Shown here: positions 8,641-60,576 of the stretch, one piece after another | Layout: every line of letters starts with the position of its first letter | Numbering within the stretch: the first letter of the stretch is position 1 | Assembly (NCBI GenBank): GCA_023253175.1 | Contig: JALRHH010000001.1 | Coordinates: 236,020 to 300,019, forward strand | Length of the DNA stretch: 64,000 nucleotides | Origin: Candidatus Saccharimonadia bacterium | GTDB lineage: Bacteria; Patescibacteriota; Saccharimonadia; Saccharimonadales; JALRHH01 | Direction: 5' to 3' | Notes under the pieces: generated by a model | What the model saw: the letters and a program-made list of their open reading frames with translations, nothing else | Databases searched by the model: none | What the model was told of the DNA's origin: nothing | Program-made: the position numbers and the translations under genes

Positions 8641-9704
8641 GCAAAGTCTATAAGGTAGCGTCGTTTTTTACGGGGCTTGGTGGTATGGACTTGGGTGGCG
8701 AGGGCGATTTTGATTTTCTCGGGCAACACTACAAGAAAAATCCACTTAAAACAGTTTACGCTATGGACTTCGACAAGCCCATTTGCGACATCTACAACGC
8801 TAATTTTGGTATAGAGTGTCAGCATAAGGATATCAACTTAGTCTCTGCCGACGAGATACCAGACCACGACATATTAACGGGTGGTTTTCCTTGCCAGTCT
8901 TTCTCCGTAGTGGCACAAAATCCGAAACGTTTAGGCTACAAGGACGACAAAAAAGGTAAGCTATTTTTCGAGATGTGTCGGATACTCAAAGAGAAAAAAC
9001 CTGCTGTATTTGTTGCCGAAAATGTAAAGGGTCTCCTGTCAGCCAATAAGGGCGAGGCGTTTCCACTCGTGATACAGGAGTTTGAAAATGCTGGCTATCA
9101 CGTTAAATATAAGGTACTTAACGCCTCTCATTTTGGCGTCCCTCAAAAGCGTGAGCGTGTCTTTATTGTCGGCTTTAGAGATAAACAGGCTTATGACGCC
9201 TTTGAGTTCCCCGAGGCAGTAACGGTAGATAAGCCTCGTATTATCAAAGAGATTATCGACCCGGAGCATACTATTGAGGACAAGTATTATTTTAGTGAGC
9301 GAGCCGTTGAGGGTATGAAAGCCACTAAACACGCTAAGACTATGAACAAGGGACGAGCACAAGATGTTAATCTACCTAGCAATACCGTAGGAGCACACTT
9401 GGCTAAAGTGAGCCTCAATAGCACCGACCCCGTATTGTGTATTGACGGTCGTTACCGTATGTTTACTCCACGAGAAGTAGCCCGTATACAGTCGTTTCCC
9501 GAGTCGTTTAAGCTACCTGGCTCTAGGACTACAAACTACAAGGCTCTAGGAAACGCTGTAGCTCCTGTAGTTATGTGGCACGTTACTCAGAGCATAATCA
9601 CGGCTCTAAAGGCAGTAGAAAGCCCTAAAACAGCTCAAGTAACAGAACAGGACGCTGTAGAGATTGTGGACGAGGGGCTAAAGCTAGAGCCACTTGTTGC
9701 TTAG
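8637..9704 (+). CDS. DNA (cytosine-5) methyltransferase, second copy
   Basis: FFTGLGG (I), GGFPCQSFS (IV), ENVKGL (VI), QKRERVFIVG (VIII), GNAVAP (X). Confidence 0.9.
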   Translation: MSKVYKVASFFTGLGGMDLGGEGDFDFLGQHYKKNPLKTVYAMDFDKPICDIYNANFGIECQHKDINLVSADEIPDHDILTGGFPCQSFSVVAQNPKRLGYKDDKKGKLFFEMCRILKEKKPAVFVAENVKGLLSANKGEAFPLVIQEFENAGYHVKYKVLNASHFGVPQKRERVFIVGFRDKQAYDAFEFPEAVTVDKPRIIKEIIDPEHTIEDKYYFSERAVEGMKATKHAKTMNKGRAQDVNLPSNTVGAHLAKVSLNSTDPVLCIDGRYRMFTPREVARIQSFPESFKLPGSRTTNYKALGNAVAPVVMWHVTQSIITALKAVESPKTAQVTEQDAVEIVDEGLKLEPLVA

Positions 9705-10561
9705 GGCTTTAGTTTAGTACGTAGATTGCCACTTACGGCAGTCAAAGCTTTGAGAGCCGATTGTAACTCACTTTTTAGGTAAGTTACTTTTTGACCTTGA
9801 GTAGTACTGTCTAAGCCAAGATTAGCCGTATACTTTGCGTCGATAATACCGCCGTTGTGCTGTTCGATGTGGCGTTTCTCGAAAACAACCCTCATATCCT
9901 GTAAGTTTTGGCTATCCAAGCCCTCGAGTATTTCTATCCCTTGCTTATCTCTAAAGTATGCTTCTGACAGGCTGATGTTCTGAAAATTAATCTTTTTGTC
10001 TTTGCTAGCATAAAAACGACATAGGTTCTGAAACGCTATAACAACGTCATTGTATATTTGGCGTAAGCCCCTGTCTGTGTCTAGCTCTTTCTCTATAATG
10101 GCTAGGTTTGCGTCTAAAATCTTTACGTCCTCTGTACCGCAAAATGGACAGCGTGAGGCGATGCCGTAAATCTCGTATAAGCTCTCACAAGATGAGCAGA
10201 CCATATCGGTTGGTATCTCGGATTGTACTAGTACGGGTTGAGCGTCGTACCGTATTCTCGCTGGCTTAAACTTAACATTTTTAGAGCCTCTTAACCCACG
10301 AGCCAAGCTATTTTGTAGCTCTTTCATAACATCATATTTAATTTGGCGGAGACCCTCTTGAGTAGCATAGTCAAACTGTTCTGGTACGTTAAAATCTGGC
10401 AAACGACCACTCTTATTGCAATATGGACAGTGGATAGTGTCTGGAAAATCTTTGTCGACCGACCTAATACCAAACTTGATTGAGCAATCAGGACAAAGAC
10501 GGTGGGTGTAGCCCTTGCCGTCGGCTGGTATTGCTATCTCGTAATGCGACTTTAGTGCCAT
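9701..10561 (-). CDS. double zinc-ribbon protein with C-terminal R-x4-H (HEPN-like) motif
   Basis: CPDC..CPYC and CSSC..CPFC cysteine pairs. C-terminal helical region contains FEKRHIEQHNGG (R-x4-H). Convergent with M2, overlapping it by 4 nt. Confidence 0.55.
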   Translation of the reverse strand: MALKSHYEIAIPADGKGYTHRLCPDCSIKFGIRSVDKDFPDTIHCPYCNKSGRLPDFNVPEQFDYATQEGLRQIKYDVMKELQNSLARGLRGSKNVKFKPARIRYDAQPVLVQSEIPTDMVCSSCESLYEIYGIASRCPFCGTEDVKILDANLAIIEKELDTDRGLRQIYNDVVIAFQNLCRFYASKDKKINFQNISLSEAYFRDKQGIEILEGLDSQNLQDMRVVFEKRHIEQHNGGIIDAKYTANLGLDSTTQGQKVTYLKSELQSALKALTAVSGNLRTKLKP

Positions 10562-11387: not shown

Positions 11388-11649
11388 CGGTCTAATTGGT
11401 TTTGCTAGTTTTGTGCTTTATGGAGCTGTTTATTGTAGCTCTGTCGGCATATACACAAGACTAGACGGCGGTTATCGACTTACATACCCCACTAAGCAAG
11501 TTATGGGGCGTGATATGGGCATTTTCCACCCGATTAACAAAGAGCTAGGTTTAGAGATTGAAAAAGCGGTTACAGCCGTATACGACGATGTAATGAGGTT
11601 AAAAAATGCTAGATACGGTAGTGCTGTCGCTGGACATATCGGAGTTTAG
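11347..11649 (+). CDS. SpoVG-like nucleic-acid-binding protein
   Basis: MITEIQITPVKPNNGLIGFASFVL...YPTK...GIFHPINKELGLEIEKAV parallels SpoVG (MEITDVRL...AIASI...DIAHPIN). Confidence 0.6.
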   Translation: MITEIQITPVKPNNGLIGFASFVLYGAVYCSSVGIYTRLDGGYRLTYPTKQVMGRDMGIFHPINKELGLEIEKAVTAVYDDVMRLKNARYGSAVAGHIGV

Positions 11650-12745
11650 AATTATGTCGACCCACTACGGCAGGTGGTCGCCCGATATAACTAACTACAT
11701 TAAACCACCTTACGTAAAACTAGGAGGTCGGAAGTTTGCCGTCTCTACTCGAACACCTACACGAAACGACGAACTAAATGGTATCTACCTACCACGTCTC
11801 AAGCTTATTAAATCGACTAGGACTGGGGGTTACTCTACTCGGTTATACGTAGAGTTCTCAGCACCTAAAATCGTCTTTAATAATAACTTTGATGAGTTAG
11901 CCGACAGCGACTTCGATAACGTCTGTAAACAGCTCTCGAAAGCCCTGCGTCGCCTAGGTGTTGCCGTAGATAAAGAAACCATAAAGACAGCCCAAGTTAA
12001 TACCGTGCACTACAGCAAAAACGTGATTTTAACTGACGGCAAACTGGCTAAAATGTTCGTCAGAGAGCTAGCCAAGGCAAACATCTCGACACGTCGTCGT
12101 AGCAAGACTAAAACCTACGGCAACGACGGCGAGGCTATGTACTTTCATACAAGCAAGTGGGCGTTTGTCGCTTACGATAAACTCGCAGAGTTTCGACGCT
12201 CTCGAAATAATAAAAAGGAGCTACTGGAGAAAGACTACTATTGTCAGTTATCTCTCTTTGATGAGTTTACGCCAGCTACACCCTTTGAAGTCATACGACT
12301 TGAGGCTCGCTATACTGACCGTAGGACTATCAAAACCAACCTAAAGCGAGCTGGAGTAACATTTAGCGAGGAGCTGCCGTTTATTGAGCTATACTCCGAG
12401 GATACGGCAAAAAAGCTACTACTTTATGAGTTAAGCCAGTTAGAAACAGCAACACCCGATATTCTATCGACCGAGCGAGACTTAGACCGCTTTATTGACA
12501 ATTTACTAGCTAACCAAGCCAAGCCCGACCGTATCGTTTACGCCGTCGGTGTCAAAAAAATATTAGAGCAATATGGTAGTCGTGGGGCGAGGTCAAGGAT
12601 ACACGCTAGCTCTAGTCAATGGTCGAGACTAATAGCTAAAACAAACAGCCTTGGTTTCACTCGCCAAGATAACGATACGACAACCACGATACGACAAAGT
12701 ATCGAGGCGTTTCGTCGTGTCAAATTAACTAACTACAAGGAGTAA
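11606..12745 (+). CDS. Rep_trans / Phage_CRI-like rolling-circle replication initiator
   Basis: N-terminal MLDTVVLSLD. GEAMYFHTSKWAFVAYDK matches the Y-x-G-x3-S-x5-Y-D-K signature. FEVIRLEARY matches the R-h-E-h-R strand. Confidence 0.55.
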   Translation: MLDTVVLSLDISEFRIMSTHYGRWSPDITNYIKPPYVKLGGRKFAVSTRTPTRNDELNGIYLPRLKLIKSTRTGGYSTRLYVEFSAPKIVFNNNFDELADSDFDNVCKQLSKALRRLGVAVDKETIKTAQVNTVHYSKNVILTDGKLAKMFVRELAKANISTRRRSKTKTYGNDGEAMYFHTSKWAFVAYDKLAEFRRSRNNKKELLEKDYYCQLSLFDEFTPATPFEVIRLEARYTDRRTIKTNLKRAGVTFSEELPFIELYSEDTAKKLLLYELSQLETATPDILSTERDLDRFIDNLLANQAKPDRIVYAVGVKKILEQYGSRGARSRIHASSSQWSRLIAKTNSLGFTRQDNDTTTTIRQSIEAFRRVKLTNYKE

Positions 12746-12753
12746 ATAGTATA

Positions 12754-14289
12754 ATGAAAACAATGAAAAAAGATAGCGAGGTTAAACCACGAAAAGCGAT
12801 TATTTTCGCTCGGGTATCGACAGCTCGCCAAGAGAAAGAGGGCTTATCCCTCAAAGAGATACAACTACCTCTAGCTTACGAGTACGCTAAAAATCACAAT
12901 ATCGAGGTGGTCGCCGAGTACGCTATTAGCGAGACTGGTAGCGAGTACAAACTACGAGCCAAGTTCAACGATATGATTGCTTTCGTAAAACGTCGTAAGG
13001 ATATTACCGACATAATCTCGTTTAGGGTAGACCGTATCACTCGTAACTTTAAAGACGCTGTCGCTATCGACGACTTACGAACCAGCTACGGCAAGAACAT
13101 ACACTGCATTGACGACCGCTTAGTCTTGACCGAGGATAGTACATCAAACGACATCACTCAATGGGATATGAAAGTGCTTTTTGCCAAGCAGTTCCTCAAC
13201 CGTGTTAAAGAGGACGGTAATAATACCAAATACCGAAAGCTGGAGCGTGGCGAGTTGCCTTGGGGTACGCCGTATGGCTACAAGCACCACACTATCAGCC
13301 CTCAAAATAAAACTGTTATAGCCGAGGATTTTAAGGCTACTATCGTCCGAAAAATACACACTCTTTACTCGACTGGTTCTTACTCGTTAGAGACGCTAGC
13401 GAGAGCCATCAACAAAGAGTACGGCACTAAGTTTTATAAAAGTTCAATCCACCGTATTCTGACCGACAAGTTCTATATCGGCATTATGACCGATAAAAAA
13501 TCAGGGAAAGAATACCCTCATAACTACGAGCGTCTAGTCGGTTTTGATATGTTTGAGCTAAACCAGCAAATCATAGAGGGACACAATGTAAAACCTCGTA
13601 AATATGCTGGCATACCGTCAATCTACAGAGGTTTAATGCGTTGTAGCCATTGTGGTTGTACTATTACGTCAGAGTTAAAGAAAAAGACCCAAAAGAACGG
13701 TGTAAGACGTGAGTATATGTACTACCACTGTACCAACAAAAGGCGTCAGCACACCTCGCCTATCCAGTACATCAGCGAGAAAGAGTTAGACGGCGTGTTT
13801 AAGTCTCTGCTCGACAACTTTGCCAATATACCAAAGGACGAGATAGAACGTATCAAAGAGACGCTAAATAGCACTCACGACGCAAAGAATAAGTTTCAAG
13901 ACGACCAGCTTTCAGAGCTTAACGTCAGGCGGTCGCAACTGACGGCTCGTATCCGCAGGACATACGATATGCTTGCTGACGGTAGTATTACCCCAGAAGT
14001 TTATGAGGAAAACCGACAGCGTTACGAGGACGAGTTAAATGATGTTAAACGAAAAATCGACCGCTTAGATACAGCCGACAAAGAGTTCTGCATTACCGCC
14101 TCGTATCTGTTACGATTGTTTGAGAACGCTGGAAAAATCTACGAGGTTGCTGACGAGGACGAAAAACGGCAAATTATCGGTTTGATAAGCTCGAACCTCG
14201 AATTAGACAACAAAAACCTTGATTTCAATCTAAAAGAACCCTTCGCTACAGTCCTAAAACTGGCTAAGAGTTCTTTATGGCAGGGGTGA
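12754..14289 (+). CDS. large serine recombinase (integrase)
   Basis: Resolvase catalytic domain AIIFARVSTARQ...SFRVDRITRN, recombinase domain, zinc ribbon CSHCGC..YYHC, C-terminal coiled coil. Stop TGA at 14287..14289 lies inside the tRNA-Trp 3' end. Confidence 0.9.
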   Translation: MKTMKKDSEVKPRKAIIFARVSTARQEKEGLSLKEIQLPLAYEYAKNHNIEVVAEYAISETGSEYKLRAKFNDMIAFVKRRKDITDIISFRVDRITRNFKDAVAIDDLRTSYGKNIHCIDDRLVLTEDSTSNDITQWDMKVLFAKQFLNRVKEDGNNTKYRKLERGELPWGTPYGYKHHTISPQNKTVIAEDFKATIVRKIHTLYSTGSYSLETLARAINKEYGTKFYKSSIHRILTDKFYIGIMTDKKSGKEYPHNYERLVGFDMFELNQQIIEGHNVKPRKYAGIPSIYRGLMRCSHCGCTITSELKKKTQKNGVRREYMYYHCTNKRRQHTSPIQYISEKELDGVFKSLLDNFANIPKDEIERIKETLNSTHDAKNKFQDDQLSELNVRRSQLTARIRRTYDMLADGSITPEVYEENRQRYEDELNDVKRKIDRLDTADKEFCITASYLLRLFENAGKIYEVADEDEKRQIIGLISSNLELDNKNLDFNLKEPFATVLKLAKSSLWQG

Positions 14290-14353
14290 CAGGACTCGAA
14301 CCTGCAACCAACGGTTTTGGAGACCGCTACTCTACCAATTGAGCTACACCCCT
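14278..14353 (-). tRNA. trnW: tRNA-Trp (anticodon CCA), CCA-3' encoded
   Basis: Reverse strand AGGGGTG-TA-GCTC-AATTGGTA-GAGT-A-GCGGT-CTCCAAA-ACCGT-TGGTT-GCAGG-TTCGAGT-CCTGT-CACCCCT-G-CCA. All four stems pair. Confidence 0.9.
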
Positions 14354-52301: not shown

Positions 52302-53537
52302 CTAGAATCGGGGCATCAGTCGCCACAGAACTGTAGGCTCGGACGCATCTTTCGAAATTACAACTGCACTCTGAGCCGTATCACGTCCCGTATTAGCCTT
52401 GATGGTGCCCACCCTTGATCCTGCCTTTGCAAATGCCTTAGGGTCATCGAGTGTTAGTTCTGTACTTGCAGAAGAATCCTGCCAGATGATGCCTTTTAGG
52501 TCAGATTCGACTGTCAGTGGAATGGAATCTGCCCAAGCTTGTTCGTACGTACCAACCTGTTGACCAGCCTTTGCAATTGTCACCTCAGAAAATCCGTTCA
52601 AAACAGAGTTTACGAGGGGCACTGAATCCCGCAGTGCCGCACCAAGATTCGGAGCACCCATGATAACGCTGACAGCGATGATTTTCTTACCGCCAACTTC
52701 ACGCACCGCAGCTGCCATGAAGCAGCCACCAGCTTCTTCAGTATTACCAGTCTTTACGCCAACAATGCCGTTACGGCCAAGCAGCATATTCACGTTGTAG
52801 ATACGGCCAGCGACGGGAATAGTCGCTTCCTGCTGTGATGCAATCTCTGCAATAACAGGGTTGTCCATGGCATTTACGGCGAGCTTGACTAGGTCAGATG
52901 AGGTACTAACTGTTTTTGGCGAATAGCCACTCGCGTCGTCAAAGTTAGTGTTCTCCATGCCCAGTGATTTCGCAAAGTTATTCACAAATCGCAGGTAGTT
53001 TTCTTCTGACCCATACGCCCACTTAACTAGGGTGTATGCCATGTTGTTAGCAGAGGGGAGTAACAGTGCCTGCAGCGCCTCATACTGCGTGATTTCCTCA
53101 CCAAGCTGCACCGGTACATTTGATCCATCCATGGCTATTGTGCGGTAATACTCGTCGACATCATCTTGCGTAATCGTGATTGTCGGACCCTTCTCACCAA
53201 CTTTTAATGGACGCTGCTTTAGAACGGCGAGGGCAGTCATAACCTTAGCGACACTAGCCGTTGGCAAGGCTTTTTGTTCACCTTTTTTGCCGAGCACGCC
53301 ATATCCCACGGCGCCAATTGCAGCCTGACCGTAGCTTGGCCAGTTAACGGATACTGATTGAGATTTGGTAGGCAGGGTAGGCTGCGGAGTGGCCTTTGCC
53401 AATGGCAGCGCGCGGCCCATCATAGCAGCGACATAAATAGCCAGAACAATCACGATCACAAATGGAACAAGCGCAGACTTGCCGCGCTTCTTTGGATGCT
53501 TCACGCTCTTAAAAGCGTGTGGTTCTACTACCCTCAT
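52302..53537 (-). CDS. D-alanyl-D-alanine carboxypeptidase (S11, PBP5-like)
   Basis: SVAK (SxxK), SANN (SxN), KTGNT (KTG); N-terminal membrane anchor. Confidence 0.85.
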   Translation of the reverse strand: MRVVEPHAFKSVKHPKKRGKSALVPFVIVIVLAIYVAAMMGRALPLAKATPQPTLPTKSQSVSVNWPSYGQAAIGAVGYGVLGKKGEQKALPTASVAKVMTALAVLKQRPLKVGEKGPTITITQDDVDEYYRTIAMDGSNVPVQLGEEITQYEALQALLLPSANNMAYTLVKWAYGSEENYLRFVNNFAKSLGMENTNFDDASGYSPKTVSTSSDLVKLAVNAMDNPVIAEIASQQEATIPVAGRIYNVNMLLGRNGIVGVKTGNTEEAGGCFMAAAVREVGGKKIIAVSVIMGAPNLGAALRDSVPLVNSVLNGFSEVTIAKAGQQVGTYEQAWADSIPLTVESDLKGIIWQDSSASTELTLDDPKAFAKAGSRVGTIKANTGRDTAQSAVVISKDASEPTVLWRLMPRF

Positions 53538-53647: not shown

Positions 53648-53722
53648 TAGGGCGTCGCCAAGTGGTAAGGCACTGGTTTTTGGTACCAGCATTCGGGGGT
53701 TCGAATCCCTCCGCCCTAGCCA
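53648..53722 (+). tRNA. trnQ: tRNA-Gln (anticodon UUG), CCA-3' encoded
   Basis: TAGGGCG-TC-GCC-AAGTGGTAA-GGC-A-CTGGT-TTTTGGT-ACCAG-CATTC-GGGGG-TTCGAAT-CCCTC-CGCCCTA-G-CCA. The U1:A72 pair fits bacterial tRNA-Gln. Confidence 0.9.
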
Positions 53723-53729
53723 TTGAAAG

Positions 53730-53753
53730 AGTCCAGCAAGTCTGGGCTTTTTC
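53730..53753 (+). terminator. intrinsic terminator after tRNA-Gln
   Basis: AGTCCAG-caagt-CTGGGCT followed by TTTTT. Confidence 0.55.
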
Positions 53754-53784
53754 AATGACTTGATGAATTCAAACTCCCGACTGA

Positions 53785-53904
53785 AGCATTCGGGGTGAAA
53801 ATTGCCAGTGGCAATTTGCAAGGCAATCTTCACTTGAAAACTTGTTTTCAAAGCAGAAGTTGCGGGCCTGCTGAAAGTAGGTCGAAATCCCTCCGCCCTA
53901 GCCA
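53785..53904 (+). pseudogene. split duplicate of the tRNA-Gln 3' portion
   Basis: AGCATTCGGGG (53785..53795) equals tRNA 53688..53698. AATCCCTCCGCCCTAGCCA (53886..53904) equals tRNA 53704..53722. The two parts are separated by 85 nt carrying two perfect hairpins: AAATTGCC/GGCAATTT 53799..53817 and TTGAAAAC/GTTTTCAA 53834..53851. Confidence 0.65.
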
Positions 53905-53951
53905 ATCATAAGCACTTTGCAAAAGCAGAGTGTTTTTGTTTATGCTTGCAT
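53902..53951 (+). repeat. cassette-boundary module copy 1 (fused to pseudo-tRNA CCA end)
   Basis: CCAATCATAAGC-ACTTTGC-AAAA-GCAGAGT-GTTTTTGTTT-ATGCTTGCAT. Confidence 0.7.
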
Positions 53952-54002
53952 CAAGGTATCTAATTCTTTAGTCTACAAAGTATGTAAGTTTGGAGTGATG
54001 AA

Positions 54003-54407
54003 ATGACAAAGTTTTGTGAAGAGTGTCCGATGAAGGGCTCGATGAAGGAAGAGATGAGTGGATTTATTGCTGGCCCTTACAGATTCAGAGCCTATAAATG
54101 GAGTAATCGCGCAAATGAGTCAGGTTATGTAGGCAGCTTAGTAGATGATTTTGGCGGTTTTTCAGAACCGATGTACCTTCCATCGGACAACCTAGCGGAT
54201 ACAGCCATTGAGTCACGTATCAATGCATGTACTGAACCCACAGAGCGCTTTGAAAAACGTGGAATAAGGGGAAGAGATCATAGGATCCTCGGTTGTCCTG
54301 CAGTAGGAGCATTAGTAGTGACAGATCACGAATTACGTACTCGTAGTTTACGTAATTTTGAAAAAATTGTATTAGCGAGCGCACAGTTACGAACAGATGA
54401 GGCTTGA
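54003..54407 (+). CDS. cassette 1: hypothetical Cys-containing protein (134 aa)
   Basis: GGAG SD; MTKFCEECPMKG..; no recognisable domain. Confidence 0.5.
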   Translation: MTKFCEECPMKGSMKEEMSGFIAGPYRFRAYKWSNRANESGYVGSLVDDFGGFSEPMYLPSDNLADTAIESRINACTEPTERFEKRGIRGRDHRILGCPAVGALVVTDHELRTRSLRNFEKIVLASAQLRTDEA

Positions 54408-54433
54408 GCATAGCTTGCTCTAATATTCAAAAC

Positions 54434-54516
54434 TAGTTTGAAGTTCGTCAATAAGCAGAAGCCAAGCATAAGCACTTTGCGGAAGCAGAGTGTTTTTGTT
54501 TTGCTTATGCTTGCAA
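54434..54516 (+). repeat. cassette-boundary module copy 2 (full length)
   Basis: TAGTTTGAAGTTCGTCAATAAGC-AGAAG-CCAAGCATAAGC-CACTTTGC-GGAA-GCAGAGTG-TTTTTGTTTT-GCTTATGCTTGCAA. Confidence 0.75.
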
Positions 54517-54544
54517 ATAATAACTAATATATTAAACTTCCAGT

Positions 54545-55042
54545 ATGTCAAACGAAATCAACTCAAATGCTGGCGATCAAGTGTCTAGCTTAACCTTCGC
54601 AGAGCTCGCTAGTCTTAGTCAGTCTGTAGCCGAGATCCGCAAAGCAGTCAGCGAGTTACCAACCACAGAGGAAATTTCCCTTATTGTTGAGGGGGAAGTA
54701 TCGCAGCGAGCAGCCGCTCTTGCTCAAAGTGCAGGTCGCTTAGCGCTTGCCGAGGCAGGCAGTGATGAATACAATGAAAGCCTCACTTCATTCCAAGAAG
54801 CCATGGAGGATCTGGGCCTATCGAATCTTTTGGCGCGCTCCATATATGGGGCTCCCCACGAAAGACTACGCCATGAGCGTATCCGTCGAGGCCTAACCCA
54901 GGAACAAGTTGCAGCACAAATGGGCATTACTTCCGCATACTTGTCTCGAATAGAGAGAGGAGAGAGGGACAGCGATACTACTCTCTCAAAAATCATAAAC
55001 TTTTTCGAGTCTAATAAATTTGACCAGATCCCGACTGAATAG
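54545..55042 (+). CDS. cassette 2: protein with C-terminal XRE-family HTH (165 aa)
   Basis: LRHERIRRGLTQEQVAAQMGITSAYLSRIERGER. TAAACT box (54533..54538) 6 nt before the ATG. Confidence 0.65.
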   Translation: MSNEINSNAGDQVSSLTFAELASLSQSVAEIRKAVSELPTTEEISLIVEGEVSQRAAALAQSAGRLALAEAGSDEYNESLTSFQEAMEDLGLSNLLARSIYGAPHERLRHERIRRGLTQEQVAAQMGITSAYLSRIERGERDSDTTLSKIINFFESNKFDQIPTE

Positions 55043-55050
55043 TCATTTAC

Positions 55051-55086
55051 ACTGTCAAGTAGGACAGTTTTTGGTTATGCTTGCAT
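55051..55086 (+). repeat. cassette-boundary module copy 3 (own hairpin, conserved right arm)
   Basis: ACTGTC-aagtag-GACAGT-TTTTGG then TTATGCTTGCAT. Confidence 0.6.
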
Positions 55087-55115
55087 GTAACTTTTAAGGC
55101 GATATACTTCGAATT

Positions 55116-55898
55116 ATGGATATGTTCACGGGAGACATGGAGAATTGGCTCAATTACGTAGAGGTAAATGATACGGAGCATGCTCGCTTACTGCGCGATA
55201 TGTTTAAGCGGCGTAATTTTACGGATCACGACGATGCGTCCAATGTGGCGTATGCCTCGGAGTTGGCACATTGGGTACATGGACATTTTGAGTATGTGAC
55301 ATATGCTCGATCTAACGAGATTCCGGGCGAACAACTACCTAGAGCACTTCGTGTGCTCACCGCACGAGAATGGAGTCCTGGCGGTGAGCTAAACATCGTG
55401 TACCCATCAGGTAGCTCAGTTGCGCTACGTCGGGAAGATGAACGAAGGGGTAATGTTGGCGGCCATTCTACACTCGAGAAAATTGTCCGTGACAGTATTG
55501 ATACTGGTAAAACATTCGATCAGACCGTAGATGACGCTACGGAGTTGATATCACTTGATGGCAACCTTGTGGGTGAACACCTTGCACTTAAAGGCCTGCG
55601 TAACACGATTGCATCAACTAAGATAACCATAGATTGGCAACACCCCCTCAGCCATACGAGCGGCTTACTACTTACAGTGAATTCCTTTGGCATAGATATT
55701 GTGCCGTACGATGAGCCAGCAGTTATGCCTGAATTATTTTCATTCGCCACTGAGAGCCTGCGAAACCCCTCAGAGCTTGCTATGCTTGCGAGCGAACTCA
55801 TGGTAATAGCCGCCGAGTACTGTCCACCGCGCAGTAGACAGTACTATACCGACAGAGAGGATATTATTCAGCTCGAACAGCTACTAAACTGCATTTAG
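55116..55898 (+). CDS. cassette 3: hypothetical protein (260 aa)
   Basis: TTGCAT-16 nt-TATACT, then 7 nt to the ATG; no domain recognised. Confidence 0.5.
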   Translation: MDMFTGDMENWLNYVEVNDTEHARLLRDMFKRRNFTDHDDASNVAYASELAHWVHGHFEYVTYARSNEIPGEQLPRALRVLTAREWSPGGELNIVYPSGSSVALRREDERRGNVGGHSTLEKIVRDSIDTGKTFDQTVDDATELISLDGNLVGEHLALKGLRNTIASTKITIDWQHPLSHTSGLLLTVNSFGIDIVPYDEPAVMPELFSFATESLRNPSELAMLASELMVIAAEYCPPRSRQYYTDREDIIQLEQLLNCI

Positions 55899-55963
55899 CT
55901 GAACCGTTCCACTAATTTAGTAAATTGCATCTACCAGAAGTAAGTCGATCATAATAATTTACG

Positions 55964-55992
55964 GGAGCAGAGTGTTTTTATTTTGCTATGAT
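55964..55992 (+). repeat. cassette-boundary module copy 4 (partial)
   Basis: GGAGCAGAGTGTTTTTATTTTGCTATGAT retains the inner 3' arm and T-run. TGcTATGAT is an extended -10. Confidence 0.45.
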
Positions 55993-55998
55993 GTATCC

Positions 55999-56565
55999 AT
56001 GGCTGATTCCCGACTAAAAATACGAGATGCCGTTGAATCCATTAAACCTTTTGATGTCTTAGAAAAGAAGCATAAAGAGGATGTCTTGGAGTGGATCGAC
56101 AGCGGCTCTCCACTTTTTCGCATTAGTAAACCGGATAATCCACCAAAACATCTTGTTTCGTACTTTGTGCTATACGATCCACAAGCCCAGTCTCTAATGT
56201 TGATTGACCACATCAAAGCAGGACTTTGGCTCCCAACTGGCGGACATGTTGATATAGATGAAGACCCCCGCGATACTGTAGTCCGTGAAGCCGAAGAGGA
56301 GTTAAAGATCAACGCAGACTTCGGCACTATATTTGGTGATGACCCGTTCTTTGTTACTGTCACTGAGACTAGGAATGCAGGAGTACATACTGATGTTAGT
56401 CTATGGTACATCATTAAAGGTAGTCTTGATGCTGGTTTGGATTTTGACACTGGCGAGATGAATGGCGTCCGTTGGCAAACCACCGAAGAAATACTGAAGT
56501 CAAATATTGATGAGCTAGACCCTCATATGCATCGCTTCACCAACAAAATGAAAGAGTTTAATTGA
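55999..56565 (+). CDS. cassette 4: Nudix hydrolase
   Basis: Nudix box GGHVDIDEDPRDTVVREAEEELKI. The ATG at 55999 (6 nt after TATGAT) is preferred over the ORF-track GTG at 55972. Confidence 0.75.
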   Translation: MADSRLKIRDAVESIKPFDVLEKKHKEDVLEWIDSGSPLFRISKPDNPPKHLVSYFVLYDPQAQSLMLIDHIKAGLWLPTGGHVDIDEDPRDTVVREAEEELKINADFGTIFGDDPFFVTVTETRNAGVHTDVSLWYIIKGSLDAGLDFDTGEMNGVRWQTTEEILKSNIDELDPHMHRFTNKMKEFN

Positions 56566-56577
56566 TAAAGTTAGCGC

Positions 56578-56663
56578 CTAGTTCGACTTTCGTCCACTAG
56601 TGTAGCCTTAAGCATTTGAGTTCTGTGATTTAGCAGAGGTTTTTGTCTTGGTTATGGTTGCAA
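56578..56663 (+). repeat. cassette-boundary module copy 5 (diverged full length)
   Basis: CTAGTTCGACTTTCGTCCA...CCTTAAGCATTTGAG...GCAGAGGTTTTTGTCTTGGTTATGGTTGCAA. Confidence 0.55.
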
Positions 56664-56692
56664 ACAGATATTAATGTCACATAATAAGCTAC

Positions 56693-57094
56693 ATGTTTAA
56701 GAATAACAACTCTGATGCCATGGGATTCCGTGAAGGATTAAGATATATATTCATTGCAGCACGCAAAGGCTATCCAGCACCTAACGAACTTATCAAAACC
56801 CTTGAGCCAAATAGTCCGGAGCTGCGCTATGCCAAACTTAGGTACGGCATTGGGAGCGCAGTGTTCGCTGGACTGTCCATGGCAGGGCTGTCATACTCGA
56901 TGCCTCATGAAGTAAACGTTATAGAAGATATTCGTGCTGGCCTAGATCAGCAGGAACTACCTTCTATAGATGAAACTTTAGGCCTTCTGCTACATTCACC
57001 GTTCATCGCACTTGAAGCCTTGATGATGGCCCATGGACTAGCACATTTGCACACTGCTCGTAACGCCGGAAGGCAGGAGAAAAGCGACCCTTAA
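56693..57094 (+). CDS. cassette 5: hypothetical membrane protein (133 aa)
   Basis: TTGCAA-16 nt-CATAAT, then 7 nt to the ATG; two hydrophobic segments. Confidence 0.5.
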   Translation: MFKNNNSDAMGFREGLRYIFIAARKGYPAPNELIKTLEPNSPELRYAKLRYGIGSAVFAGLSMAGLSYSMPHEVNVIEDIRAGLDQQELPSIDETLGLLLHSPFIALEALMMAHGLAHLHTARNAGRQEKSDP

Positions 57095-57176
57095 GGCCGT
57101 CATATGAATTCATTCAAGAATCACATTGACAATAAATAGCATTTCGCCTATCCCTGACTCCACTAACGAGCTTCAT

Positions 57177-57218
57177 CAAGCATAAATCATGTACAAATTA
57201 GTATTTTTGTGGTATAAA
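57177..57218 (+). repeat. cassette-boundary module copy 6 (remnant)
   Basis: CAAGCATAA...TATTTTTGTGGTATAAA; only the left-arm core and the T-run/-10 are retained. Confidence 0.35.
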
Positions 57219-57225
57219 GTAAATT

Positions 57226-57411
57226 ATGAAGCCACAACACTTTGAGAACATTGATCAGCGTGATCCAGAGGAGATAGTGAACACTGAGCAATCATTTTCG
57301 TTTACGCGTTCTAAAAAGGCAGGCGAAGATGTAATGCGTCTACTCTCTAAAGATCAGCGTGATCCAGAAGAGATAGCCACAAAAACACTGACTAACACCC
57401 TTTACTCATAG
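57226..57411 (+). CDS. cassette 6: 61-aa protein with internal DQRDPEEI repeat
   Basis: TGgTATAAA 7 nt before the ATG. DQRDPEEI occurs twice. The TAG stop is the first triplet of module copy 7. Confidence 0.4.
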   Translation: MKPQHFENIDQRDPEEIVNTEQSFSFTRSKKAGEDVMRLLSKDQRDPEEIATKTLTNTLYS

Positions 57412-57492
57412 TTCGAAGTTCGTCAATAAGCGGCAGCCAAGCATAAGCACTTTGTGAAAGCAAAGTGTTTTTTTGTTTTGCTTATGCTCGCA
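57409..57492 (+). repeat. cassette-boundary module copy 7 (full length)
   Basis: TAGTTCGAAGTTCGTCAATAAGC-GGCAG-CCAAGCATAAGC-CACTTTGT-GAAA-GCAAAGTG-TTTTTTTGTTTT-GCTTATGCTCGCA. Confidence 0.75.
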
Positions 57493-57523
57493 AAATAATT
57501 GCTAAGCTGACAAAATATCTTGG

Positions 57524-58246
57524 ATGACCGAAAGATTTATTGTTCCAGAAGAAAACGGAGGTAATGGCTTTCTTGAAGACGCATGCGTTGTTTATGGCGA
57601 AGAGGCCGCAATGGTTATTTCTGACTCAATTATCAGTGGCCTGGGGTATGCTCAGGCGATGCTATCATTAGACAATATTGACACACTCAGGCTTCATCTT
57701 GCCGTAATGCGCCCACCAGGTAAGCACGACAGAGATCACCCTGTCCATGCATGGGCAAATGGCTCAGAAAACAGTATTGCTTTCATGATTAACCCAGATG
57801 CTACTACGGCCGAGATTGCCGAATCACTTTATCGTGCTGTCCCGCATGAACTTGGCCATATTGCGCATTACCGATGCAATCCTAAGTTTGGTAATGAATC
57901 GGCAGAAGCAAAACCGTATAACCACTTTAGCTCAGCAATTCAAGAAGGGATCGCAAGAAGTGCGGAAGTGCTCGAAAATCCAGATGCGAACATATTAGCA
58001 CGAGGCTTTTATAAGTATCGTCTAGGTATTAAAGAGGGGGTGAGACTGCTCTTAGACCCTGAAGCAACTGCTGACTTCGAGAGCTATGACGTATTGTACG
58101 GGAATATCAAAGAGCTTGATGATGTATACGCGATTGGACATTATGTCGTTTCAAGCTTAGCACTAGCTGAGAAGCGTGACTTTCAAGCTCTTTTGCGAAC
58201 ACCGCTCATGGAATATGTAGAATTTGCACAGGCTGAACTTACATAG
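57524..58246 (+). CDS. cassette 7: HExxH zinc-metalloprotease-like protein (240 aa)
   Basis: AVPHELGHIAHY. CAAAAT box 7 nt before the ATG. The TAG stop is the first triplet of module copy 8. Confidence 0.5.
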   Translation: MTERFIVPEENGGNGFLEDACVVYGEEAAMVISDSIISGLGYAQAMLSLDNIDTLRLHLAVMRPPGKHDRDHPVHAWANGSENSIAFMINPDATTAEIAESLYRAVPHELGHIAHYRCNPKFGNESAEAKPYNHFSSAIQEGIARSAEVLENPDANILARGFYKYRLGIKEGVRLLLDPEATADFESYDVLYGNIKELDDVYAIGHYVVSSLALAEKRDFQALLRTPLMEYVEFAQAELT

Positions 58247-58262
58247 TTTCGAAGTTCGCCAG
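58244..58262 (+). repeat. cassette-boundary module copy 8 (left part only, array end)
   Basis: TAGTTTCGAAGTTCGCCA, then unrelated sequence and the 3' end of a convergent gene. Confidence 0.55.
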
Positions 58263-58287
58263 AGAACGGCAAAGCAAAAGAAAGCAC

Positions 58288-58734
58288 TTATTTGCTTGCA
58301 GTAGATGGGTGTTTTTTCTTTGGTATTATTCTACCTTTTTCGTCTCGCTCTGCGCTACGTAGCCCACTAACCATCCCATATAAACCTATTAGCAGCACAA
58401 AACCCGAGATAACGTATCCTAGTTGCCACCAAGCCCCTAGTGAATAGAAAAACCAGGAAAGGTAAGCCCCGATTGGCGTAAAGATAAGCCCAATTGCGAT
58501 CTCCGTCCCATCCCGCCGATGCTGAGTTGATTCTTTTATATATTTGTTCACGCTTTTATCGATATGGTTTAAAAGCGCGACTTTCTGCGCCGAGTTTTTA
58601 GGAAGTAGACCAAAGAGCTCGAGATCTTTTTTTATACCGTAGTGCTTTCTGGCAAAGACTTCAGTTTTGCTAATGAAGGCCACACTGATTGCGACAATGC
58701 CAGATATGATAGCTATGATGATCTCTGTGGTCAT
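58288..58734 (-). CDS. hypothetical membrane protein (148 aa)
   Basis: N-terminal TM and two C-terminal TMs; no motif. Confidence 0.45.
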   Translation of the reverse strand: MTTEIIIAIISGIVAISVAFISKTEVFARKHYGIKKDLELFGLLPKNSAQKVALLNHIDKSVNKYIKESTQHRRDGTEIAIGLIFTPIGAYLSWFFYSLGAWWQLGYVISGFVLLIGLYGMVSGLRSAERDEKGRIIPKKKHPSTASK

Positions 58735-58931
58735 GTGCTAATTATATCGTAAATCAAGGATCCTATTACTATATGACACCAAGGACTTGGGCGGCACACG
58801 AGACCACTAGCAACTTTTACCAGCATGGGTGACTATCCTTCATTGAACCATTCCATTATTTACGCAAACTTTTTGCTTGTTTTTGTCAGCTACTATTTAC
58901 CCAACAGCTATTCTCTTTATCCAGTGAGTTA

Positions 58932-59120
58932 TTAACGAGAGAAAAGTTTCTCTATCGATATTTTTAATACACTTGCTAATTCAAATGCCAGAGAAAGACT
59001 TGGGTCAAACTTATTCTTCTCAATCGATATAATCGTCTGTCGGCTGACGCCAACTTTACCGGCAAGCTGCTCTTGAGTTAGCCCAATTTCTGTGCGATAT
59101 TCCTTAACTCTATTATTCAT
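58932..59120 (-). CDS. XRE-family HTH transcriptional regulator (62 aa)
   Basis: LTQEQLAGKVGVSRQTIISIEKNKFDPSL; classic short Cro/CI-type protein. Confidence 0.85.
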   Translation of the reverse strand: MNNRVKEYRTEIGLTQEQLAGKVGVSRQTIISIEKNKFDPSLSLAFELASVLKISIEKLFSR

Positions 59121-59524
59121 TACGACTCTCTTTTTTTCACGATGACCAGCTTGCCAATAAAATCTATGACAATAATTGCGATCGTCGCAAAATTCGCAAG
59201 CTGCCAGCCAATGACGTCAAACAATGCCAGTAACGTGCCGATTGTTATAGATCCGAAAGCGATCACAAAACTTGATGCAGCTGCGTCCTTGAGCCATTTT
59301 TTTTCAATCGTCTTTGTATTCCCGACCGGCCCAGCAACGAGTGACATCACTAGTATCGATAGCCCAACGATACCCGCCCCAAATACACTATCCCAACTTG
59401 CCTCGACAGGGAAAAACAGTATTACTATCGTGGCGATAAAAGTATAAACCGCGAGAAGGTAATAAATGTTTGGATAAAAATATCGTTTAGCTGATTGAGG
59501 TTCTTTGCTGACATTTTTGTTCAT
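59120..59524 (-). CDS. four-TM membrane protein co-transcribed with the XRE regulator
   Basis: Overlaps the XRE start by 1 nt; four hydrophobic helices. Confidence 0.55.
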   Translation of the reverse strand: MNKNVSKEPQSAKRYFYPNIYYLLAVYTFIATIVILFFPVEASWDSVFGAGIVGLSILVMSLVAGPVGNTKTIEKKWLKDAAASSFVIAFGSITIGTLLALFDVIGWQLANFATIAIIVIDFIGKLVIVKKRES

Positions 59525-59537
59525 ATTGTTCCTTACT

Positions 59538-59603
59538 ATGTAAAGTTATGTTTACATTTTTATCCTATCAATTATAGATATATATGTAAAGTAGACTTTA
59601 CAT
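59538..59603. promoter_or_regulatory. two operator-like palindromes sharing the ATGTAAAGT half-site
   Basis: ATGTAAA-gttatg-TTTACAT at 59538..59557. ATGTAAAGT-ag-ACTTTACAT at 59584..59603. Both lie just upstream of the membrane/XRE operon. Confidence 0.45.
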
Positions 59604-59783
59604 ATTACACATGCCTGAGGTGTTTAATATCCCAAATTTATTAAAGCTAGGGGGTATGTAATAACCGTACGTACGGAGTAATAGAGAGACCTTACGCAGG
59701 ATGCAGACAGTAAAAGCCACATGATATTGTTAATAACAGAAAATGGTGGTAGTGTAGGTTTAACTTAAAAGGGAGATATTTAT

Positions 59784-60329
59784 ATGCCACCACTTAGCCA
59801 TGGCACGCCAGAAAGCCATCCAGAACTCGAAACTAGAGAACAGATTAGAAATATAGAAGAGTCTATGTGTCGTGAGGCAATTAGTCTCTTAAGCAACATC
59901 AGATATTTGGAGCAACAAGAACTAGGCGGCCTTAAGGCAAGTTTTCATCACCGCAAACCAGTCGAATCAGAAAGTGTGCGTTATGAAACAGAAGCTCATA
60001 ACGGAGACTACGCCGTTCGCGCAAAGCTTGTACACAATGGAAGCAAAAAAGAAGACACTATCTCGCTGCTCACACAAGTCGTGAGAGACGTTGAACTCCC
60101 CGGAGAACGAGAGGGAGACGAACGAGTGGATGAGGTATCAATCTCTCCATGGGTGGAGCGAGTCCGCCTTAAGGGCTCTATGATTGGCGAGTGCGGTGTC
60201 AGCATTCTTGATGCAAATACCCGAATCATCACCCCCCAGCAACACCTAGAATTAGTCCAGAATATGAACGATACCATTACGCTTGTCGTAGAAAACCACT
60301 ATTCACGATTGTTTGAAACGGCATTATGA
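59784..60329 (+). CDS. hypothetical protein (181 aa)
   Basis: GGGAGA SD; no motif. Confidence 0.45.
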   Translation: MPPLSHGTPESHPELETREQIRNIEESMCREAISLLSNIRYLEQQELGGLKASFHHRKPVESESVRYETEAHNGDYAVRAKLVHNGSKKEDTISLLTQVVRDVELPGEREGDERVDEVSISPWVERVRLKGSMIGECGVSILDANTRIITPQQHLELVQNMNDTITLVVENHYSRLFETAL

Positions 60330-60576
60330 GAGGATAATCGCAATGAAATCCGGTTCAATTACAGAGAAAGAACCGGCACCAATCCTATGGCGAGTTTATA
60401 GAAGAGCAGCAACAAAGGAAGCAAGCCTATAAACTAGCCAGGCCCACGGCACCCAACTTTAACTTATAAAATCCTGTTGAAATTGTACCCATAACCTTAA
60501 GATGTGTAGATGCTGGATTCGATGTAACTTATTATCACAAGTTAGAAGAGTACGAAAAATATACCCACCTCATTTT

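Follow-up and report, generated by a model that had tools for sequence, protein, structure and literature searches.

A candidate accretion locus of single-gene cassettes anchored at the 3′ end of a tRNA-Gln gene in a Saccharimonadia genome

Several described systems resemble the locus reported here. The pdif modules of Acinetobacter plasmids hold one or a few genes, with 28-bp sites of the layout XerC-6 nucleotides (nt)-XerD in alternating orientation, while XerC and XerD are encoded elsewhere. Phage morons are self-contained promoter-open reading frame (ORF)-terminator blocks lying between other genes inside prophages. In Streptococcus thermophilus, integrative and conjugative elements (ICEs) and cis-mobilizable elements (CIMEs) accrete by tandem site-specific build-up at one att site, including elements without a recombinase. 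The genomic islands of Prochlorococcus are anchored at transfer RNA (tRNA) genes, are built by successive integrations and are shaped by tycheposons (10.1101/2020.12.28.424599). Here we describe an array of seven single-gene cassettes on the 3′ side of a tRNA-Gln gene of a Candidatus Saccharimonadia bacterium, within a stretch of 64,000 nt of contig JALRHH010000001.1 (below called the window). The locus is best supported as a small flexible island, that is, an accretion locus of autonomous promoter-ORF-terminator cassettes anchored at a tRNA 3′ end. That its units were inserted site-specifically by a trans-acting enzyme after ends of the CCA type, each unit regenerating such an end, we rate at about even odds (roughly 0.5).

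In the window and in the loci compared with it (numbered from L001), we observed units and junctions of a recurrent anatomy that are restricted to tRNA-linked sites, cassette content that turns over between relatives, cassettes whose homologs lie at different anchors, and filled and empty sites for a non-coding unit, T1+X, beside the tRNA. Each unit would be autonomous, with a promoter whose −10 element lies 6–7 nt before the ATG, one ORF and an intrinsic terminator. The junction consists of a pseudo-tRNA 3′ end (pseudo-end) closing in (A)GCCA; behind it come AGCATAAGCAC, a hairpin of 8 bp, a T-run and the promoter of the next unit. Copies of this module alternate with the cassettes as follows (positions in the window; HTH, helix-turn-helix).

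52302..53537, minus strand: D-Ala-D-Ala carboxypeptidase (Peptidase_S11; Pfam E 1.3e-30), conserved left flank
53648..53722, plus strand: tRNA-Gln(UUG), anchor of the array, CCA encoded (ARAGORN; Rfam tRNA, 60.8 bits)
53718..53760, plus strand: T1, hairpin terminator right after the tRNA CCA (inverted repeat with 19-nt arms, 84% complementary)
53786..53904, plus strand: X, the 3′ third of tRNA-Gln (variable loop to CCA) with a T-loop insertion; 119 nt, structured
53905..53950, plus strand: module copy 1, canonical, with ATCATAAGCAC trailer, 8-bp hairpin, T-run and TTTATGCTTGCA (nhmmer E 7e-15; terminator-like)
54003..54407, plus strand: cassette 1, 134 amino acids (aa), no family match
54434..54516, plus strand: module copy 2, canonical, with pseudo-end TAGTTTGAAGTTCGTCAATAAGCAGAAGCCA, AGCATAAGCAC, hairpin, T-run and GCTTATGCTTGCA (nhmmer E 2e-16)
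54545..55042, plus strand: cassette 2, 165 aa, XRE-type HTH at the C-terminus (Pfam HTH_3, E 5.9e-11)
55043..55085, plus strand: module copy 3, diverged, with another terminator hairpin and GGTTATGCTTGCA
55116..55898, plus strand: cassette 3 (c3), 260 aa, fold unrecognised
55958..55998, plus strand: module copy 4, partial, with the 3′ half of the hairpin, T-run and extended −10 TGCTATGAT (nhmmer E 8e-4)
55999..56565, plus strand: cassette 4, Nudix hydrolase, 188 aa (Pfam NUDIX, E 3.6e-13)
56579..56662, plus strand: module copy 5, diverged, with pseudo-end TAGTTCGACTTTCGTCCACTAGTGTAGCC, another hairpin and GGTTATGGTTGCA
56693..57094, plus strand: cassette 5, 133 aa, no family match
57095..57225, plus strand: spacer between cassettes 5 and 6, no recognisable module (alignment; no nhmmer match)
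57226..57411, plus strand: cassette 6, 61 aa, 25-nt internal repeat
57409..57492, plus strand: module copy 7, canonical (nhmmer E 3e-14)
57524..58246, plus strand: cassette 7 (c7), 240 aa, HExxH motif (HELGH)
58244..58330, plus strand: module copy 8, diverged, with pseudo-end TAGTTTCGAAGTTCGCCAGAGAACGGCAAAGCA, long hairpin, T-run and extended −10 TGGTATTAT
58288..60576: distal variable region of four genes, three on the minus strand, without modules; absent in L048
60577..61227, minus strand: CDP-alcohol phosphatidyltransferase, conserved right flank (annotation; ortholog in L048)

In its working, the locus is closest to tRNA-anchored islands in which partial tRNAs are scattered. Like the Prochlorococcus islands, it is anchored on the 3′ side of a tRNA gene, contains scattered full and partial tRNAs and differs in content between relatives; in both, new arrivals are thought to displace older ones inward, and the genome is streamlined and poor in classical mobile elements. 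Direct repeats of the tRNA end (17–19 nt) and variable content between conserved flanks are further marks of a tRNA island that we find here; the other array junctions carry degenerate pseudo-ends only. Tycheposons span several kb and encode a recombinase, either a tyrosine or a large serine one, often together with replication genes, whereas each unit here is one gene of 0.2–0.8 kb with its own promoter and terminator. Unlike in the Prochlorococcus islands, no integrase lies in or near the arrays (six annotated loci), and the junction belongs to a cross-genome family (pseudo-end, AGCATAAGCAC and hairpin) instead of being a copy of the local tRNA. New with respect to known tRNA islands are thus the single-gene grain, the lack of a local integrase and a conserved cross-genome junction that appears to double as terminator and promoter. 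In the full-text literature on tRNA-linked islands, hotspots and integrases of Saccharibacteria, we found no description of this junction system.

With integrons, the array shares one-directional, mostly single-gene cassettes of unrelated function, a palindromic element at their boundaries, a stop codon that sometimes lies inside this element and, as proposed, the regeneration of the insertion point by the inserted unit. It differs in having no adjacent intI, putative promoters of the cassettes' own instead of a common Pc, a tRNA 3′ end as anchor and a hairpin that reads as a sense-strand RNA terminator. Inspection of the module consensus found no attC boxes (RYYYAAC ... GTTRRRY). Because intI and attC boxes are lacking and the cassettes have their own promoters, the array is not an integron. 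An earlier note on this DNA, made from the sequence alone, had already stated that no recombinase is adjacent and that attC rules do not hold, in agreement with our annotation, Pfam searches and inspection. Its suggestion of an integron-like locus with an undescribed mechanism is unproven: tRNA-anchored islands with partial tRNAs are of a known kind, and homologous exchange is a live alternative.

Small modules, short boundary sites and a recombinase encoded elsewhere (here proposed) recall pdif modules. These are plasmid-borne and have no tRNA link, whereas the junctions described here are tRNA-linked direct repeats of ~75 nt, and their GCATAA...TTATGC arms stand ~31 nt apart instead of the 6 nt of pdif. 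A dif-like (Xer) site was considered separately and rejected on inspection, as no 11-6-11 layout was seen. The cassettes resemble morons as autonomous transcription blocks, but have a common junction and a tRNA anchor, and no phage genes or phage matches were found; in BLAST searches of the whole array against phage and plasmid collections, the tRNA-Gln itself was the only match. Tandem build-up at a repeated site from units without a recombinase of their own resembles ICE/CIME accretion. There, by contrast, the elements span many kb, their integrase comes from the array or from a partner ICE, and a protein gene's 3′ end serves as the site.

The arrangement of seven co-oriented ORFs downstream of tRNA-Gln, described in the earlier note, was borne out by ARAGORN, Rfam and an ORF scan of the window. 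Of the functions it had predicted for them, those of the XRE-HTH and Nudix proteins are supported by Pfam, whereas the other five cassettes match no family in Pfam, PHROGs or PADLOC. The latter two resources returned only generic HTH and Nudix matches, with no sign of phage or defence functions. An AlphaFold2 model of c3 (predicted local distance difference test score of 73) had no significant fold match in the PDB, and c3 is therefore not recognisable as a recombinase. The GC content of the array is 0.40–0.45 vs 0.47–0.51 in the upstream flank. Cassette 6 carries a direct repeat (57253-57277 and 57352-57376; 96% identity, 99 nt apart) that codes for a duplicated DQRDPEEI peptide segment.

The same note had counted eight copies of one module, which is an overstatement: our alignment gives three canonical copies, four diverged or partial ones and one spacer without a copy, which holds only CAAGCATAAATCA and an extended −10 ahead of cassette 6. 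Copies 2 and 7 are 88% identical across 69 nt, and the outer arms, described as complementary, pair at 12 of 12 positions in copy 2. The TAG stop codon is indeed the first triplet of the module at 57409 (cassette 6) and 58244, in agreement with the ORF ends. All junctions are direct repeats on the plus strand, and module motifs are limited to 53.9–58.3 kb of the window, above shuffled expectation: TTATGCTTGCA has five clustered matches, AGCAGAGTGTTTTT four (0.8 expected from shuffles) and GCCAAGCATAAGCA five (0.75 expected; 0 of 100 shuffles equally high). A search with the nhmmer profile found no further copy elsewhere in the 64 kb. The −10 of copy 8 (TGGTATTAT, 58322-58330) is an orphan promoter without a following ORF, pointing into the 3′ end of a convergent gene (58288-58734).

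Unrelated genes flanking two copies as similar as 2 and 7, a hairpin of the terminator type and promoter elements in its right arm would also be expected if a terminator/promoter spacer had been copied locally, through duplication or gene conversion, between vertically inherited genes. We regard this as quite improbable, as other tRNAs and other species have this module too, relatives do not share the genes that lie between its copies, and the cassettes are near-orphans found at other anchors.

This wider distribution emerged from a metagenome scan with the hairpin pattern, which yielded 34 loci. The pattern, CCA-AGC-ATAAGCAC-TTTGC-loop-GCAGAGTG-TTTTTG, starts 3 nt after the CCA end of the tRNA. 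In Saccharibacteria-like contigs, the module directly follows tRNA-Asn (several loci), tRNA-Gln(CUG), tRNA-Trp and tRNA-Met, and it also follows tRNA-end-like pseudo-ends inside arrays (L029, L012, L023 and L017). A census comprised 53 distinct strong copies in 377 kb, nine of which begin at a distance of 3 nt from the CCA of a complete tRNA (Asn, Gln with anticodon CTG in the DNA, Trp or Met). At the same offset, a GCCA pseudo-end is found in 32 copies and another NCCA in four, while eight do not fit. The modules are always co-oriented with the anchoring tRNA. A site specific to tRNA-Gln, as had been assumed, is thus contradicted by the same junction after these other tRNAs and by T1+X after tRNA-Asn, tRNA-Gly and tRNA-Arg.

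No module was found in the housekeeping flanks of the window or of L001-L003, L045, L047 and L048 (~100 kb of relatives), and on contigs of 1.2 Mb, 365 kb, 247 kb, 216 kb and 174 kb the exact hairpin pattern is confined to a single stretch each. The module is therefore not a dispersed repeat of the repetitive extragenic palindromic (REP) or miniature inverted-repeat transposable element (MITE) type, which has many copies genome-wide. Copies scattered over ordinary intergenic sites without a link to tRNA-Gln had been named as evidence that would speak against the insertion model; no such copies appeared in these flanks, and the link is to several tRNAs, not to tRNA-Gln alone. A selfish repeat clustering here by chance (REP, MITE or like palindrome-associated transposable elements, PATEs; for example, non-autonomous ends of the IS200/IS605 type) would nevertheless begin its units right after (A)GCCA and end them with the same pentanucleotide, as observed. 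Hairpins near both unit ends and the non-coding T1+X, ~180 nt long with several copies per contig, also suit it, and the fixed (A)GCCA junction fits the IS200/IS605 type. However, neither a Y1/HUH nor any other transposase was found in the annotated loci or, elsewhere, among the 25 commonest of 87 Pfam families. The copies are few per genome and always tRNA-linked, whereas a 5-nt target alone would scatter them genome-wide, which is not observed. We consider a selfish repeat very improbable.

The hairpin pattern had no match in a scan of viral contigs. The 16-mer AGCCAAGCATAAGCAC had 77 (L057-L133), mostly in one conserved phage coding region that reads as YLAKHKH (putatively ThyX-like) and is a trap for motif searches with the module core; one match, in L096, falls in an unrelated locus encoding an HNH protein.

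The most invariant part of the module is GCCA followed by AGCATAAGCAC. L012 and L017 keep this core but have other terminators in place of the hairpin. The pseudo-end family occupies the 30 nt ahead of the core and has the consensus (T)AGTTcGAAnnnCGTCCACTAGGGGGAGCCA and a constant length, ~5 nt longer than the real segment from T-loop to CCA. Pseudo-ends of the Asn, Gln(CUG) and Trp arrays resemble, over their final 9–12 nt, the end of the array's own tRNA. For the window, the left part of the module had been likened to the T-loop and acceptor of tRNA-Gln, a likeness that Smith-Waterman scores against 2000 dinucleotide shuffles do not support (p = 0.05, 0.18, 0.20 and 0.63 for four copies). 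The window pseudo-ends thus appear to belong to a cross-genome sequence family that is not detectably derived from tRNA-Gln.

Filled and empty T1+X sites, together with the 17–19-nt repeats of the tRNA end, are the clearest sign of site-specific insertion. In the window, T1+X is a non-coding unit of ~180 nt (53723-53904) made of the T1 terminator, a linker, X and a 19-nt tRNA-end repeat. The last 19 nt of tRNA-Gln (53704-53722) recur exactly (19 of 19) at 53886-53904, which confirms a duplicated tRNA-Gln 3′ end fused to module copy 1; this duplicate is not a bare one, as had been thought, but closes the 119-nt structured X. The stem of T1 covaries in the relatives L045 and L048. X keeps the local T-stem and has the T-loop replaced by a hairpin or three-way junction of 54–85 nt; in the window, this structured insertion measures 84 nt (53796-53879). 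Across six sequences, 11 of 20 pairs show compensatory changes; across three (window, L002 and L003), 10 of 39 pairs do. X was seen for Gln, Asn, Gly and Arg tRNAs, outside the window at the following positions.

L002, ~9900-9720, minus strand: X
L003, ~9620-9790, plus strand: X
L029, 320-404 and 3919-4002: X, twice
L008: X
L023, 565-651: X
L054, 7910-7992: X
L012, 3080-3161, minus strand: X
L019, 4065-4158 and 6231-6326: X, twice

T1+X follows tRNA-Asn (L029, L008, L031 and L036), tRNA-Gly (L010) and tRNA-Arg (L054), and it follows pseudo-ends in L029, L023, L012 and L019 (twice). At tRNA-Asn, four of these loci are filled sites with the order tRNA-Asn-CCA, T1+X, AGCATAAGCAC (L029, L008, L031 and L036), and in six empty sites the tRNA-Asn-CCA abuts AGCATAAGCAC directly (L013, L022, L025, L033, L034 and L037). 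The local tRNA 3′ end is repeated over 17–19 nt by T1+X in L010, L031, L036 and L054. After pseudo-ends, only ~5 nt (AGCCA) are shared, which is too short for homologous recombination at these junctions.

No Rfam family matched the module or X, either at gathering thresholds across the whole window or at permissive E-values in the tRNA-Gln regions of the window and L003; these scans returned tRNAs and the L10 leader only. As a covarying T-loop insertion, X would be a structured nucleic acid, tied to tRNA genes, that has not been characterised before. A second, full-length and itself interrupted copy of tRNA-Gln houses the Gln-type X in L002 and L003. A hammerhead-like core (CUGAUGA in X of both loci) and a group II intron domain V were each rejected on inspection.

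To find orthologous loci, we used the carboxypeptidase flank as an anchor (orthologs 61–91% identical), which led to three Candidatus Saccharibacteria metagenome-assembled genomes (MAGs) and a graded series of relatives. The window holds 11 genes between tRNA-Gln and the CDP-alcohol phosphatidyltransferase gene. In the same interval, L048 (86% identical flank) has two small unrelated genes and one canonical module. L001 (77%) has other genes after tRNA-Gln and no module. L002 (61%), a contig of a Saccharibacteria MAG, has the module three to four times among three other cassettes, namely a 99-aa ORF, a small membrane protein and a Nudix protein unrelated to that of the window; a truncated 3′ end fragment directly follows its tRNA-Gln. 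In L003, the tRNA is inverted and one module fragment remains. Content and order are thus not identical among relatives, which had been put forward as a check, and none of the window's cassettes has a homolog in the 50 other loci first compared. These differences, together with the c3 and c7 homologs beside other tRNAs described below, support an insertion hotspot at the tRNA 3′ end and not a vertically inherited cluster. Six short-read contigs (L040, L045, L046, L047, L052 and L053), four from relatives with 86–91% identical flanks and two with an identical flank, end at the tRNA-Gln locus, 75–290 nt upstream of the carboxypeptidase gene, which suggests assembly breaks from repeats or population heterogeneity.

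The tRNA-Gln is inverted relative to the carboxypeptidase gene in both L003 and L053. The second tRNA-Gln copy of the relatives has insertions in the anticodon loop and T-loop and is split by a piece of ~125 nt that carries an intact tRNA. The rearranged locus occupies these positions.

L002, 9560-9900, minus strand: rearranged tRNA-Gln locus
L003, 9600-9930: rearranged tRNA-Gln locus
L052, 1-262: rearranged tRNA-Gln locus
L053, 1-162: rearranged tRNA-Gln locus

Two of the cassettes recur at other anchors. Among 5.8 billion proteins, c3 has only three homolog clusters. In L049/L050, its homolog lies in a variable region between tRNA-Trp and AAA_33/YgjP/histidine-kinase core genes. In L051 it immediately follows an Ala-like tRNA 3′ end (...TGCTCCACCA; missed by ARAGORN) plus a T1-type terminator, and is located upstream of a sequence that we read as the start of the 23S rRNA. 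The promoter of c3, (T)GCTTGCA-N17-TATACT-N7-ATG, accompanies the gene at other loci, and all three copies keep GCTTGCA-N17-TATACT-N7-ATGGATATG. c7 likewise has only three homolog clusters. Its homolog is the first cassette after tRNA-Gly/tRNA-Arg(UCU) in L054 and the second in the orthologous L055, and in L056 it lies between module variants, ending TAGTTCTAACC...GGGAGCCA; the homolog P0128 has a weak match to DUF2268. Other families, too, follow the module with differing upstream neighbours (L005/L012; L015/L027/L037; L006/L018/L021).

A different route to such a locus is homologous exchange after natural transformation, with the ~75-nt modules or the flanking core genes as portable arms for RecA and no dedicated recombinase. 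Natural competence is known in Saccharibacteria, where linear DNA is integrated through homologous recombination, and natural transformation is their only experimentally shown route of gene acquisition (PMC10633639). The lack of an adjacent recombinase and the unusual conservation of the module between species, as well as between copies 2 and 7, agree with this explanation. We nevertheless judge it possible but on balance unlikely. T1+X units and some cassettes share just those ~5 nt (AGCCA) with their flanks, and c3 and c7 homologs stand after Trp, Ala-like, Arg and Gln tRNAs with no common homology on the left-hand side. Moreover, the arrays of L049 and L055 vary though they lack the hairpin module, and 17–19-nt repeats of a tRNA 3′ end are a classic mark of site-specific integration.

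We next consider the module as a transcription signal. A terminator scan of the window marked module copies 1, 2 and 7 and the diverged copies at 55051 and 58279 as terminator-like. The RNA fold of copy 2 has −32.6 kcal/mol (z = −5.4), and the z-scores of copies 7, 1 and 8 are −2.5, −3.0 and −3.3. In an alignment of 41 copies, the 8-bp stem is paired in 98.8% of cells. Its variation is nearly all of the U-G/U-A or C-G/U-G kind, so that pairing is kept on the plus strand only. The claim of an intrinsic terminator thus holds up: given this wobble variation, the T-run and the terminator scan, the hairpin most probably acts as a sense-strand RNA terminator. No evidence was found in the module for a recombination hairpin. 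The module is ~92% column-identical across contigs, including species with ~60% identical flanking proteins. T1, the other terminator after tRNA-Gln, drifts with compensatory changes while the module stem is near-invariant, so structure alone does not suffice to explain the conservation of the module; recent spread, gene conversion or an additional role that depends on sequence are suggested instead.

The earlier note had also placed a −10-like hexamer 6–7 nt before each ATG. By reading, this is so for cassettes 2–7, often with a preceding TGn, and not for cassette 1. The respective promoter regions are 54516-54547, 55085-55118, 55984-56001, 56662-56695, 57208-57228 and 57492-57526; module copy 5 contributes a promoter-like TTGCAA-16-CATAAT. 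Because the −10 is so close to the ATG and leaves no room for a Shine-Dalgarno sequence, the mRNAs of cassettes 2–7 may be leaderless or nearly so.

The window contains one recombinase, a large serine recombinase, which the earlier note had listed among candidates to test. It belongs to an integrated element (11606-14353) that abuts tRNA-Trp.

11606-12745: Phage_CRI-like replication protein (filamentous-phage-type), adjoining the serine recombinase
12754-14289: large serine recombinase with Resolvase, Recombinase and Zn_ribbon_recom domains
14278-14353, minus strand: tRNA-Trp, its 3′ end antisense to the last four codons of the recombinase gene

The junction of this element with the tRNA-Trp 3′ end indicates that recombination at tRNA 3′ ends occurs in this organism; action of this enzyme on the array does not follow from it. 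Within the window, no second tRNA-Trp 3′ end delimiting the element was found. L024 and L011 instead have the AGCATAAGCAC module after the CCA end of tRNA-Trp.

The arrays could also be the wreckage of larger integrase-bearing elements, such as prophages or integrative plasmids, that integrated serially at tRNAs and were reduced by deletion to single genes. The partial tRNAs of the Prochlorococcus tRNA-anchored islands arise in this way (10.1101/2020.12.28.424599). The serine-recombinase element at tRNA-Trp, the truncated tRNA-Gln 3′ fragment in L002 and, by reading only, truncated 3′ pieces of tRNA-Asn beside modules in L028 and L032 would be of the same origin. Against this, the arrays showed no integrase fragments or phage genes: none was present among the 25 commonest of the 87 Pfam families found in 99 ORFs of other array loci. 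In addition, c3 and c7 are found again as lone genes, each under its own promoter and beside different neighbours, and the pseudo-ends form a cross-genome family of constant length, unlike independently decayed local tRNAs. We therefore hold this origin to be unlikely.

Site-specific insertion in trans is favoured by junctions fixed to the nucleotide, by inserts sharing as little as 5 nt with their flanks and by cassette homologs at unrelated tRNAs. Several observations weigh against it. Up to 10 kb from the anchor, six annotated loci are free of recombinase genes, and none adjoins the other anchors; for the window array, annotation and Pfam found no Phage_integrase within this distance, and the upstream neighbour is the carboxypeptidase. 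Among contigs with 100% identical flanks, the arrays are identical, without strain-level gain or loss, and neither an excised circle nor polymorphism within a population was seen. The c3 and c7 homologs are just 46–55% identical, so any transfers are old. Several window junctions lack the module motif in the alignment, and in L055 there are cassettes that no module accompanies. Copies 2 and 7 are closer to each other than to the tRNA, which would fit duplication or gene conversion as well. The pseudo-ends of three tRNA-Gln(UUG) arrays, including that of the window, are unlike their own tRNA and instead Asn-like, and RNAalifold detected no conserved fold in 22 pseudo-ends. Finally, most metagenome contigs were assigned to a taxon by inference. 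The idea that pseudo-ends mimic a T-arm was dropped after the RNAalifold result. Given no significant likeness to tRNA-Gln and no fold, we treat the pseudo-end as a conserved cassette end, closing in a CCA-type pentanucleotide, and not as a decayed local tRNA.

For the order of events, the site-specific nature of the insertion and the enzyme acting in trans, we infer the following course. New DNA would enter immediately after a CCA-type end, either the true tRNA end or a pseudo-end, most likely through site-specific recombination by a recombinase encoded elsewhere. The inserted unit would bring its own (A)GCCA-type end and so regenerate the site, with the result that units pile up in one orientation and older ones are displaced away from the tRNA. 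The hairpin would end the transcript of the upstream cassette and abut the next promoter, leaving each cassette insulated. More speculatively, and rather improbably in our view, this would amount to a dedicated cassette-capture system of Saccharibacteria that evolved independently of integrons, with tRNA 3′ ends as primary site, the ~75-nt junction in the role of attC, leaderless cassettes and a recombinase in trans, possibly helped or guided by X, which is found at the tRNA-proximal end of many arrays. If true, a trans-acting or structure-guided recombinase would define a new integron-like system.

Saccharibacteria and other members of the candidate phyla radiation (CPR) have tiny genomes and depend on host bacteria, and their acquisition of accessory genes is poorly understood. 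A recurrent capture junction at the 3′ ends of tRNAs would account for the places where strain-specific genes gather and could serve as a simple marker of flexible genes in CPR metagenomes. It would also supply natural landing pads and portable promoter and terminator parts for new genetic tools in Saccharibacteria and their CPR relatives.

Some cassettes differ in composition from their surroundings. In otherwise low-GC arrays, L029 (1895-2268) and L049 (8920-9279, minus strand) contain high-GC genes with GC-rich terminators, which look like acquisitions from a high-GC donor. The hosts of Saccharibacteria are Actinobacteria. In L019 (1-400), a tRNA-Asn(GUU) that ARAGORN does not call has its anticodon loop interrupted by a group I intron (Rfam RF00028, 83.5 bits, E 7e-22).

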